Assembly (NCBI GenBank): GCA_043812155.1
Contig: JBDRMK010000011.1
Span: forward strand, 16,111-80,110
DNA: 64,000 bases
DNA from: Patescibacteria group bacterium
GTDB taxonomy: Bacteria > Patescibacteriota > Patescibacteriia > JAXHNJ01
Direction: 5' to 3'
Shown here: positions 54,612-56,294 of the stretch, piece after piece
Numbering within the stretch: the first letter of the stretch is position 1
Layout: each line of letters begins with the position of its first letter
Notes under the pieces: generated by a model
Seen by the model: the letters and a program-made list of their open reading frames with translations, nothing else
Told to the model about the DNA's origin: nothing
Database searches by the model: none
Program-made: the position numbers and the translations under genes

Positions 54612-56294
54612 ATGTCCATTCGCAGAAAAGTCTGGCTCACCTTTATTGGAATTATTATCCTGGCTGTTTTGGCCGGGTTTGTTGATTATCCTAAAGGCCC
54701 GAATATCAGAATTGGCTCATATTTTAAGGAAATTAAAGTTCATTTAGGCCTGGATCTATCCGGCGGAACCAGCTTGGTTTATCAAGCGGATACTTCCAAT
54801 ATTCCCGAAGGCGATAAGGCTTCCGCTCTGGAGGGGGTAAGAGATGTTATTGAAAGAAGAGTCAATACTTTCGGAGTGTCTGAACCGGTTATCCAAACCA
54901 ATAAGTCCGGCGAAAATTGGCGGGTGGTAGTTGAATTGCCGGGAGTGACAGATATTAAAGAAGCGATCCAAAGAATCGGAGAAACGCCTCTTTTGGAATT
55001 TAAAGAAGAAGCGCCGCCGGTCGTTTTAACCGACGAACAAAATAAAGAAATAGCGGATTATAATATCCAGGCCAAAAAGAAGGCGGAGGAAGTATTGGCC
55101 CTCGCTTTAAAAAGCGGCGCCGATTTTAGCGCTCTCGCCAGCGAATACAGTGAGGATCCGGGCAGTAAGGATCAGGGCGGGGATTTGGGCTTTTTTAACG
55201 AAGGGGATATGGTGGCGGAATTTAATGATGTTTCTTTTAATAAAGCTCAAAAAGGAGTAGTTTATCCGGAGCTAGTGGAGACAGTATATGGTTACCATAT
55301 TATTTTAAAAACTGACGAAAAGGAAACAGACGGCGTAAAAGAGGCGCGAGCTTCGCATATCCTAATTTTGAAAAAAAGCGAGGCTGATTATCAGACTGGG
55401 GGAGCATATGTTGATACCGGCCTTTCCGGCCAGCAATTAAAAAGAGCTTACGTGGAATTTGATAATCAAACAGGCGTTCCGACCGTGGGTTTGGAATTTA
55501 ATGATGAAGGCAAGAATTTATTTGCGGATATCACAGAGAGAAATATCGGGAAAATCGTCGCCATTTATCTGGATGGTTCCCCGATTTCTTTGCCTACGGT
55601 GAATGATAAAATCGCGGACGGACGGGCGGTTATCAGTGGAACATTTAGTTTAGATGAAGCCAAGACTCTGGCTCAGCGTCTGAATTCCGGCGCCTTGCCC
55701 GTTCCCATAACTTTGATCAGTCAGCAGAATATTGGCGCGACATTAGGCAAGATCTCGGTCCAGAAAAGCTTATTCGCCGGTCTGATCGGCCTTTTAGCCG
55801 TGGCTGTTTTTATGATATTTTTTTACCGCTTACCCGGCTTGCTTTCCGTATTAGCGCTTTTAAATTACACATTAATTGTCTTAGCGATTTTTAAACTTTG
55901 GCCGGTCACGATGACTTTGGCTGGAGTGGCGGGTTTTATCCTTTCTATCGGCATCGCGGTGGATGCCAATATTTTGATTTTTGAGCGCATTAAGGAAGAA
56001 TTACGCAGCGGAAAGCCTTTGGATTTAGCGGTGGAAGAAGGTTTTAAGCGGGCCTGGCTCTCAATAAGAGATTCCAATGTTTCTTCAATTATCACCTGCA
56101 TAATTCTGGCCTGGTTTGGCACCAGCCTTATTAAAGGATTTGCTATTACTTTAGCCATCGGTATTTTGGTTTCCATGTTTTCGGCGATCACTGTCTCCCG
56201 GACTTTTTTAAGATTAATCGTCGGGCCGCGGCTTTCTAAGCATTTGGCCTGGTTTGGAGTTAAACCCGATAATTCTTGGGAAAAAAATGTTTAA
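54612..56294 (+). CDS. secD: protein translocase subunit SecD carrying an inserted parvulin-type PPIase domain (approx. nt 55014-55317)
   Basis: SecD N-TM, P1 head (..[26 protein letters not shown]..), RND-like 6 TM C-terminus; insert ..[42 protein letters not shown].. = parvulin signature. Confidence 0.85.
   Translation: [560 protein letters not shown]

Follow-up and report, generated by a model that had tools for sequence, protein, structure and literature searches.

A circularly permuted parvulin domain within SecD P1 in Patescibacteria

The parvulin PpiD, which acts with YfgM in E. coli and Vibrio, sits beside SecYEG on the outside of the cytoplasmic membrane, carries its own TM anchor, SurA-like chaperone domains and a parvulin domain of normal strand order, and contacts SecD (PMC9643414). 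The lipid-anchored dimer PrsA has its parvulin inserted in an NC chaperone domain (PMC12445088). In the minimal, wall-less Mycoplasma pneumoniae, the surface lipoproteins Mpn444 and Mpn436 have an active parvulin PPIase within large trimeric assemblies that also contain a chaperone-like domain and a propeller; their link to SecD is non-covalent, and Mpn444 crosslinks to SecD at multiple points (bioRxiv 10.1101/2024.09.05.611430). Canonical SecDF, solved for T. thermophilus (3aqp, 5yhf) and D. radiodurans (5xan), has no P1 foldase domain in these structures. The SecD described here shares with canonical SecDF the fold, the P1 base, the P1 head, the TM layout and the essential Asp and Arg, and in addition contains a parvulin domain. 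This domain is a parvulin that would likewise lie at the outer face of the membrane beside SecYEG, and differs from PpiD in being covalent within SecD, permuted and without an accompanying chaperone domain. Like PrsA, it is a non-phospho-specific parvulin tethered to the membrane, with a predicted extracytoplasmic location and with Asp where Pin1 has C113; it differs from PrsA in that the P1 domain of SecD hosts the parvulin instead of an NC domain. The foldase-at-translocon-exit logic is that of Mpn444 and Mpn436.

The window, meaning the whole stretch of 64,000 nucleotides that was analysed, contains a secD gene whose product shows 100 % identity to P0001 ('protein translocase subunit SecD [Patescibacteria group bacterium]') and scores 388.9 bits with TIGR01129 (secD, NCBIfam; cutoff 244.4). 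The Pfam families SecD_1st, SecDF_P1_head (aa 269-364) and SecD_SecF_C (aa 367-535), the SecD set PF21760, PF22599 and PF02355, were each found above their own cutoffs in the 560-aa protein. The AF2 secondary structure, with an N-terminal TM helix (H3-25), P1 and long helices at 380-536, corresponds to one TM plus P1 plus five TM (RND half), and the P1 region after TM1 would, by homology to T. thermophilus SecDF, lie outside the cytoplasm. The P1 head is the mobile, substrate-binding part of SecD, and its limits against the base were taken here from the Pfam boundaries. The strand TPLLEFKEE that closes the N-terminal part of the base is invariant. Foldseek searches with the full-length model (mean pLDDT 82.5, and 85-91 in the insert) returned only SecDF and RND transporters, with the SecDF structures 5xan, 5yhf and 3aqp as top matches (E 1e-22 to 1e-24) and no match of its own for the insert. 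Residues D340, D637 and R671 of T. thermophilus (Tt) SecDF are essential (PMC5974789). The first aligns to D451 of SecD, which is invariant in 120 homologues, and for the other two SecF has kept the corresponding Asp and Arg (alignment to Tt 454-726), in the motifs SVHDTIVV (SINDSIVV in Tt) and ETIIRSLNT (QTLSRTVMT in Tt). Judged from its sequence, the gene encodes a working SecD, with the proton-coupling residues of SecD/SecF kept. The features of the locus are shown in Table 1.

Table 1 Positions in the window of secD, its protein segments and the neighbouring sec genes
Feature	Position	Strand	Basis
secD	54612..56294	+	560-aa ORF including stop codon; TIGR01129 2.9e-116
TM1 helix (aa 5-25)	54624..54686	+	AF2 helix H3-25; topology by homology to T. 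thermophilus SecDF
P1 base, N-terminal part (aa 75-133), ending in strand TPLLEFKEE	54834..55010	+	Pfam SecD_1st 3.8e-17; alignment to Tt 29-116
Variable linker 1 (aa 134-140, APPVVLT)	55011..55031	+	Coil in AF2 model; mean pairwise identity 0.31
Parvulin body, alpha1 to beta4 (aa 141-239)	55032..55328	+	Rotamase_3 3e-23, Rotamase 3.4e-17; pLDDT 85-91
Catalytic/pocket residues in body: D182, L192, M200, F204, Y226, H229	D182 55155-55157; H229 55296-55298	+	Codons verified
Tight turn (aa 240-241) and relocated beta1 strand (aa 242-253, 55335-55370), catalytic H249 (55356-55358)	55329..55379	+	AF2 hairpin; profile transposition
Variable linker 2 (aa 254-265)	55371..55406	+	pLDDT dip to 71; mean pairwise identity 0.26
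P1 head subdomain (aa 266-365)	55407..55706	+	Pfam SecDF_P1_head 1.4e-27, profile positions 19-114 of 114; aligns Tt 160 onward
TM2-TM6 (aa 375-540), including TM4 Asp D451 (55962-55964)	55734..56231	+	SecD_SecF_C 9e-15; 3aqp alignment
secF	56287..57177	+	Overlaps secD end; SecD_SecF_C 7.8e-56
secA	47901..50576	+	Pfam SecA_DEAD 5.9e-120 and other SecA domains

The original prediction placed a parvulin-type PPIase inside P1, after the LEFKEE strand and before the head, and the Pfam domain order agrees, with the parvulin domain (aa 141-256, 55032-55379) lying between SecD_1st (aa 75-133) and SecDF_P1_head. A Rotamase match had been expected beside the SecD families, and a strong one was obtained both for the whole ORF (aa 146-236; Rotamase_3 3e-23, 83 bits, cutoff 22.5; Rotamase 3.4e-17, 63.7 bits, cutoff 21.7) and for the segment 55014-55317 (+), translated as aa 135-235, alone (Rotamase_3 4.3e-24, 85.7 bits, cutoff 22.5; Rotamase 1.2e-18). 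That segment, which was the extent first proposed, covers alpha1 to beta4 and misses the completing strand at aa 242-253, so that the domain runs about 60 nt further. Stop codons abound on the strand opposite to this segment. Close homologues align to the segment as parvulin and not as ordinary P1 sequence. In the alignment with T. thermophilus SecDF (3aqp), SecD 39-131 corresponds to Tt 29-116 and SecD 271-536 to Tt 160-425, and at the insert site 139 residues are found in SecD against 43 in Thermus, far above chance (canonical SecD has about 43 there). Sequence matches of the insert in the PDB were PrsA, SurA and PpiC, the closest relative being PrsA (PDB 6vj6, 6xd8; NCBIfam PRK02998, PRK03095). 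The NCBIfam PrsA and SurA models match the parvulin part only and far below their cutoffs (e.g. 68.7 bits against 360), and no SurA_N, PrsA NC or trigger-factor-C family was found among the Pfam matches to whole SecD. The domain is internal to SecD (aa 133 to 266) and has no lipoprotein or single-TM anchor of its own. Mean pairwise identity is 0.74 in the N-terminal P1 base, 0.50 in the parvulin body, 0.58 in the relocated strand (beta1') and 0.16-0.31 in the linkers and turn; the parvulin is a separate lobe, attached where P1 base and head meet by two linkers, both short and variable.

The canonical parvulin order (beta1, helices, beta2, helix, beta3, beta4) is not found in the insert; all of its elements are present and the domain is circularly permuted, running from alpha1 to beta4 and then, through a tight turn, into the strand that is usually the N-terminal beta1. 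Beta1 with its catalytic His is absent upstream and was found after beta4 as ARASHILIL (aa 245-253, H249). In the native order the match to the Rotamase families (PF00639 and PF13616) leaves out the start of the profile, beginning at position 12-13 (profile of 97) or 28 (profile of 116); with aa 241-260 moved to the front it covers 1-96 and 15-115, respectively, and gains 5 and 8.5 bits. Aligned with PrsA1 (6xd8, residues 4-93) and SurA-P2, the transposed construct matches from one end to the other, and beta1' takes the place of their beta1. Over 130 proteins the transposition gained 7.5 +/- 2.4 bits, against 1.7 for a shuffled strand and 2.4 for the native upstream sequence. The SecDF_P1_head profile stops short of the SHIL strand (match from aa 269, profile position 19), and the AF2 model has a beta4 to beta1' hairpin (E227-239 / E242-253). 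Conserved motifs, profile scores and DSSP strings predict that beta1' pairs with beta4 within the parvulin sheet; for the strand pairing and the orientation of the lobe, the model was read through its DSSP strings, its pLDDT and the summary figures of Foldseek. Since beta1 follows beta4 via the tight turn, H229 and H249 stand on the two arms of one hairpin, and the entry and exit points of the domain fall at the usual beta1-alpha1 loop.

The insert has the active-site and proline-pocket residues of parvulins (H249, H229, D182, L192, M200, F204 and Y226), of which D182 is at what we take to be the Pin1-C113 position (Asp or Cys), the His pair, Leu, Met and Phe being assigned likewise by Pin1 numbering. 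Among 141 single-insert proteins, H229 is present in all 141, H249 in 132, D182 in 122 (Gly replaces it in 16), L192 in 137, M200 in 103, F204 in 139 and F/Y226 in 138, and the H/H/D set is complete in 117. The insert is a putative prolyl isomerase.

The SecD-parvulin architecture was found in 120 of the 120 best homologues and in about 49 of the top 150 representatives (50 % identity, classified with sub-profiles). It also occurs in 19 of 80 reference-genome loci among the matches listed, a scan that is a sample and not a census, in which a single pattern (GYHII) fits every parvulin and insert-free SecDs were not recovered. A junction-profile search gave 650 matches at E<=1e-30, a number that is not a count of chimeras, as proteins with several parvulins sum several matches. 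Altogether the same architecture was seen in 173 different proteins drawn from many separate assemblies; as these homologues are related by descent, they do not count as independent events. This architecture is conserved as a trait of the family, and all carriers trace to Patescibacteria (candidate phyla radiation, CPR). Spread beyond this group, as the labels 'uncultured Gammaproteobacteria', 'Binatia' and 'Lysobacteraceae' would have it, is unsupported; all eight SecD cores so labelled nest among CPR-labelled ones. Six of the eight loci have genes beyond secD-secF in common with the window, and the other two (L006 and L025) do not; the SecD core of L006 is 64-70 % identical to CPR-labelled cores.

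A common variant has two parvulin units in SecD. In these double-insert proteins the conserved His pair is formed by the middle beta1 (32/32) and the second beta4 (32/32), while the outer body has its beta4 His in 2 of 32 and the terminal strand its His in 6 of 32, both degenerating together. The AF2 model (pLDDT 93.4, pTM 0.77) has two continuous strands of 23-24 residues, and solved parvulins align to it over their full length (TM 0.82-0.84), with SurA as the top Foldseek match. The variant is therefore predicted, from this model, to consist of two strand-exchanged lobes, of which only one is catalytically intact. SurA similarly contains a tandem of an inactive parvulin (P1) and an active one (P2), comparable to the degenerate and intact pair, whereas the SurA parvulins are separate domains of normal order in a soluble periplasmic chaperone and the two SecD lobes are predicted to share two long strands.

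The best reading of these data, and in our opinion a probable one, is that the domain works as a foldase or holdase of the PrsA/PpiD kind, tethered to the P1 arm that moves in the PMF-driven SecDF motor. The proton-motive force would swing the P1 head, drawing the unfolded chain from SecYEG, and the tethered parvulin would meet the chain as it emerges, where it may bind proline-containing or hydrophobic stretches and either speed their cis/trans isomerisation or merely hold the chain. The same job would be done in trans by the lipoprotein PrsA in Gram-positives and by membrane-anchored PpiD, contacting SecD, in E. coli. Coupling of translocation to prolyl isomerisation is plausible by analogy, because partnerships in trans are known for PpiD with SecD and for Mpn444 with SecD, and the parvulin may be coupled to the SecDF power stroke. 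A stronger version is offered as speculation that will probably prove wrong: the lobe would be a working part of the power stroke, riding the P1 head, gripping proline segments and trading them with the head cavity, SecDF in reduced-genome hosts would be both puller and foldase in place of free envelope chaperones, and the permutation and, in sister lineages, the strand-exchanged two-lobe form would have been selected for an entry/exit face that fits the head/base hinge.

When active-site mutations remove the PPIase activity of PrsA, secretion is hardly affected (PMC12445088), and the importance of the parvulin domain of PpiD has been questioned (PMC9643414), so that the conserved catalytic residues of the SecD insert are no proof that isomerisation is the selected function, and by comparison with PrsA a holdase role is just as possible as isomerisation coupling. 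The same two observations (PMC12445088 and PMC9643414, respectively) favour the view that the lobe is an entirely non-catalytic holdase or substrate-capture module that enlarges the P1-head surface, its 'catalytic' residues shaping the pocket or stabilising the fold. That a non-catalytic parvulin lobe can be retained follows from the double-insert SecDs, in which one lobe has lost its catalytic residues; they keep a lobe without the His and pocket residues at pLDDT >90. We nevertheless regard this view as rather unlikely, as H, H and D occur together in 117 of the 141 single-insert proteins and both His in one lobe of all 32 double-insert proteins, which is more than upkeep of the fold needs.

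The same conservation also weighs against a structural or regulatory insert unrelated to substrates, such as a docking site of SecDF for SecYEG, YidC or wall components or a gate on the motion of the P1 head. An extra lobe at the base/head junction could affect the swing of the head (PMC5974789), but docking gives no reason for so full a conservation of the parvulin active site, and every known envelope parvulin (PrsA, SurA, PpiD, Mpn444) works on client proteins, which makes such a role very improbable. The source is a metagenome-assembled genome, and assemblies of this kind can contain chimeras; a parvulin could thus have been joined to secD by mis-assembly or by a wrongly called ORF, or the SHIL strand could be an ordinary P1-head strand with no permutation at all. 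This artefactual explanation is effectively refuted by the intact reading frame (54612-56294 is unbroken), by recurrence of the architecture in the 173 proteins from many independent assemblies, and by the profile evidence, the P1_head profile not reaching the strand and the Rotamase profile claiming it once transposed.

The co-occurrence of SecD and parvulin domains is already visible in database annotations, and no prior description of a SecD-parvulin fusion or of a permuted parvulin was found in the largely open-access literature searched. The fusion joins in one chain a partnership that other bacteria keep as separate proteins. Crosslinking and genetics in E. coli, Vibrio and Mycoplasma have placed PpiD and Mpn444 beside SecD, and a natural covalent fusion is independent evidence, of the 'Rosetta-stone' type, for a functional partnership of parvulin and SecD. 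SecD-parvulin together with SecF is a compact single-chain system for structural and single-molecule study of the coordination between pulling and folding at the translocon exit, and the fusion gives an actual example of how Patescibacteria with reduced genomes may manage proteostasis in their envelope. The permuted parvulin, together with the double form that is predicted to be strand-exchanged and has one degenerate and one intact lobe, is a clean natural case of an enzyme fold, small and well studied, that has evolved by permutation, duplication and domain swapping.

The start of secF was taken as the ATG at 56287, the ORF list giving an upstream TTG at 56254, and secA directly precedes secD in related loci (synteny). 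A parvulin profile search found no second parvulin within the 64-kb window. A heliorhodopsin gene adjoins secD, and heliorhodopsins have been reported from monoderms alone (bioRxiv 10.1101/356287); for these reasons 'periplasmic' is probably a misnomer for this host. PrsA as the closest relative of the insert fits such a likely monoderm host.

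The interval 55014-55317 on the forward strand is a stop-free reading frame encoding the peptide quoted in the original prediction, its opposite strand is rich in stops, and the peptide forms amino acids 135-235 of a 560-aa open reading frame. A Pfam scan of the whole protein matched both the SecD and the Rotamase families, the latter between SecD_1st and SecDF_P1_head (see table), in agreement with the proposal of a parvulin-type peptidyl-prolyl isomerase (PPIase) domain inside the P1 region of SecD. The protein scored 388.9 bits against the NCBIfam secD equivalog (cutoff 244.4) and has every testable defining feature of SecD, and matches to the NCBIfam PrsA, SurA and PpiC models are confined to the insert. 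Alignment to the Thermus thermophilus (Tt) SecDF crystal sequence pairs residues 39-131 with Tt 29-116 and residues 271-536 with Tt 160-425, and the base-to-head interval measures 139 residues, versus 43 in T. thermophilus. The parvulin insertion in SecD is real and far beyond chance. The interval was rightly placed in the parvulin but its end is short, as the permutation evidence described below sets the domain at aa 141-256 (window 55032-55379), which runs 62 nt further.

Locations of SecD domains (aa) and of secD and its neighbouring genes (window nucleotides)
Feature	Location	Evidence or remark
SecD_1st	aa 75-133	Pfam, E 3.8e-17
Rotamase_3 / Rotamase	aa 146-236	Pfam, E 3e-23 / 3.4e-17
SecDF_P1_head	aa 269-364	Pfam, E 1.4e-27
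SecD_SecF_C	aa 367-535	Pfam, E 9e-15
secA	47901-50576 (+)	about 4 kb upstream of secD
Ham1	50583-51221	between secA and secD
FG-GAP + YkuD L,D-transpeptidase	51518-52942	between secA and secD
Heliorhodopsin, full-length	53046-53831 (+)	PF18761 3.2e-100, profile 1-242 of 242; two genes upstream of secD
Gmad2-domain protein	53804-54475	between secA and secD
secD	54612-56294 (+)	
secF	56287-57177	directly after secD, overlapping its end
Sigma70_r4 + HARE-HTH protein	57329-58447 (+)	first gene after secF
475-aa protein	58460-59887 (+)	no Pfam match; second gene after secF

The inserted parvulin is circularly permuted, a feature absent from the original prediction. In native order the Pfam Rotamase-family matches leave out the start of each profile, beginning at position 13 (97-position profile) and 28 (116-position profile). 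The beta1 strand, which bears one catalytic histidine of the two, is thus missing upstream, and the beta4 motif GYHIILKTD is followed immediately by a textbook parvulin beta1 motif. When aa 241-260 were placed ahead of aa 150-239 and rescored with Pfam, the match widened to positions 1-96 of the 97-position profile, its score rising from 67.4 to 72.4 bits, and to positions 15-115 of the 116-position profile, rising from 88.4 to 96.9 bits; no gain came from the native upstream sequence. The transposed construct aligns over its full length with solved parvulins, with EARASHILI opposite EIKASHILV of PrsA1 (6xd8) and a 13-residue stretch opposite VTEVHARHILLK of SurA-P2. In 130 members of the family, transposition raised the score against an ordinary-parvulin profile, built from 68 parvulins of the reference-genome scan, by 7.5 +/- 2.4 bits, a measure of consistency and no independent-sample statistic, the sequences being related and the strand picked by the motif H-[ILVM]-[ILVFM]. 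The corresponding gains for a shuffled strand and for the native upstream 14 residues were 1.7 and 2.4 bits.

An AF2 model of SecD, computed from a 120-sequence alignment (mean pLDDT 82.5), folds the insert at pLDDT 85-91, with pLDDT falling at both linkers. It contains helices at 141-166, 172-179 and 202-211 and strands at 191-196, 227-239 and, after a two-residue turn, 242-253; beta4 (227-239) and the relocated beta1 (242-253) form a single predicted hairpin. In the ordinary parvulin fold the two His-bearing strands are adjacent and the chain termini lie near each other, so a link from beta4 to beta1, with a break in the beta1-alpha1 loop, is a geometrically simple change.

Active-site positions were read from an alignment to PrsA, SurA-P2 and PpiC, with equivalent positions given in Pin1 numbering, and conservation was counted over 141 SecDs with a single insert. 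All active-site and proline-pocket positions are filled: H249 on the relocated beta1 (His in 132/141), H229 on beta4 (141/141), D182 within SEDPG at the Pin1 C113 / Par14 D74 position (122/141), and the pocket residues L192 (137/141), M200 (103/141), F204 (139/141) and Y/F226 (138/141). On these residues the insert looks catalytically competent and is assigned to the non-phospho-specific, PrsA/Par10-like type of parvulin, and the conservation of H249 and H229 also speaks for the permutation. Mean pairwise identity among homologues is 0.50 for the parvulin body, 0.58 for the relocated strand, 0.16-0.31 for the two linkers and hairpin turn, 0.66 for the P1 head and 0.73 for the TM region, which points to a folded, constrained, discrete lobe on flexible tethers.

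Two parvulin units are present in 14 of 19 insert-bearing loci and in about 22 of 49 representatives among the matches listed (for example reference-genome loci L006-L011, L013, L014, L017, L021, L022, L025, L043 and L051, and proteins P0093, P0106 and P0121, among others), and in a rough NJ tree single- and double-insert forms fall among one another. The linear order is first body, strand, second body, strand. Over 32 such proteins, the first body has lost its pocket residues and has the beta4 His in 2/32, the middle strand has its His in 32/32, the second body retains the beta4 His in 32/32, F226 in 30/32, F204 in 31/32 and M200 in 26/32, and the terminal strand has a His in 6/32. Because His is kept in all 32 in each, the middle strand and second body are assigned as the conserved catalytic pair, a normal-order parvulin; the first body and terminal strand degenerate jointly. 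In an AF2 model of the P0106 double-insert region (pLDDT 93.4, pTM 0.77), residues 100-122 and 208-231 are unbroken 23-24-residue strands without hairpins, and small solved parvulins align across their whole length: 6xd8 (107 columns, target 94), 4g2p (113, target 108) and 2jzv (105, target 111) at target-normalised TM-scores of 0.83, 0.84 and 0.82. The simplest reading of the model is of two lobes exchanging strands through two long antiparallel strands, much like an intramolecular domain swap, in which the inner lobe would be active and the terminal strand would complete the degenerate outer lobe. This reading gives independent support to the post-beta4 strand as a true parvulin beta1. About 21 of the 32, counted by eye, carry a Cys pair in the inner-parvulin beta1-alpha1 loop (HxLIC-x6-C; in P0106, insert residues 119-131, HLLICYKGASRC), which might form an extracytoplasmic disulfide.

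The surrounding motor is intact. D451, invariant in the best 120 homologues, lies opposite Tt D340, the essential Asp of TM4; SecF retains residues matching Tt D637 (Asp) and R671 (Arg), and the best structural matches of the full-length SecD model are SecDF crystal structures. The gene thus looks like that of a functional SecDF to which one lobe has been added, and not like a decayed one. In SecDF, proton flow drives the P1 head between a membrane-facing and an upright form, and the head binds the chain as it emerges (PMC5974789, PMC6028853). In E. coli the membrane-anchored parvulin chaperone PpiD contacts SecD (PMC9643414), and in Mycoplasma the lipoprotein Mpn444, which has an active parvulin, crosslinks to SecD (bioRxiv 10.1101/2024.09.05.611430). 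In the SecD described here such a partner would be fused into the P1 arm, and every chain pulled by SecDF would meet a tethered prolyl isomerase or holdase. In Bacillus the essential parvulin foldase tethered to the membrane is PrsA, yet its PPIase activity is dispensable for secretion (PMC12445088). This precedent and the retention of the degenerate lobe in double-insert SecDs make a holdase role plausible; full conservation of the catalytic set speaks for a pocket that is functional.

Both its sequence and its residues make the insert a member of the parvulin family, from whose canonical topology it departs because it is permuted. Unlike members of the PrsA, SurA and PpiD families it has neither an NC chaperone domain nor an anchor of its own, and therefore falls outside them, though it plausibly works as they do. 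SecD-parvulin co-occurrence is already present in precomputed Pfam annotations under the plain source name 'SecD'; a full-text literature search, with most subscription journals outside its range, found no published description of a parvulin fused to SecD or of one in permuted order. The protein would give the Sec field a useful natural fusion and an attractive example of a permuted fold, and no new principle.

A survey of SecD homologues showed the architecture to be a trait conserved across the family: the two parvulin families PF00639 and PF13616 sit amid the SecD domains in all of the best 120 of at least 8000 matches (59-100% identical to the query), the named ones being 'SecD' of Patescibacteria group or Candidatus Kerfeldbacteria. 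A scan of species-representative genomes gave at least 80 loci, and sub-profile classification marks at least 19 of them as insert-bearing SecDs (Buchanan-, Komeili-, Uhr- and Falkowbacteria and 'Parcubacteria'), and chimeras, fragments counted, made up 49 of the 150 best matches in a library of 1.84 billion representative proteins. Eight of the 19 loci (L002, L006, L007, L013, L021, L022, L025 and L043) are labelled Gammaproteobacteria, Binatia or Lysobacteraceae; all are GTDB representative MAG contigs, including some titled 'uncultured Gammaproteobacteria'. In six of them the resemblance to the window extends past secD-secF to other genes (the upstream SecA or the genes downstream in L007, L013, L021, L022 and L043, another window gene in L002), and in L006 and L025 it does not, and the SecD cores of all eight nest among those labelled candidate phyla radiation (CPR), that of the 64%-GC 'Binatia' locus L006 being 64-70% identical to them. 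These labels are treated as unreliable and are probably wrong, and the matches listed from the genome and protein scans gave no evidence of an insert-bearing SecD outside Patescibacteria. Two of the 49 representatives, P0144 (905 aa) and P0249 (1015 aa), are fusions of a parvulin-bearing SecD with SecF, ordered base, parvulin, head, TM, TM, so the insert occurs in single-chain SecDF too.

A heliorhodopsin gene lies near secD, and a preprint reports heliorhodopsins from no organisms other than monoderms (bioRxiv 10.1101/356287), which suggests a monoderm host; the parvulin lobe would then act at the membrane-wall interface like PrsA, outside any true periplasm. Four genes separate secA from secD in the window, and secA directly precedes secD in loci L004, L010 and L043, giving a secA-secD-secF cluster. 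Several related loci keep both genes that follow secF in synteny with secDF.
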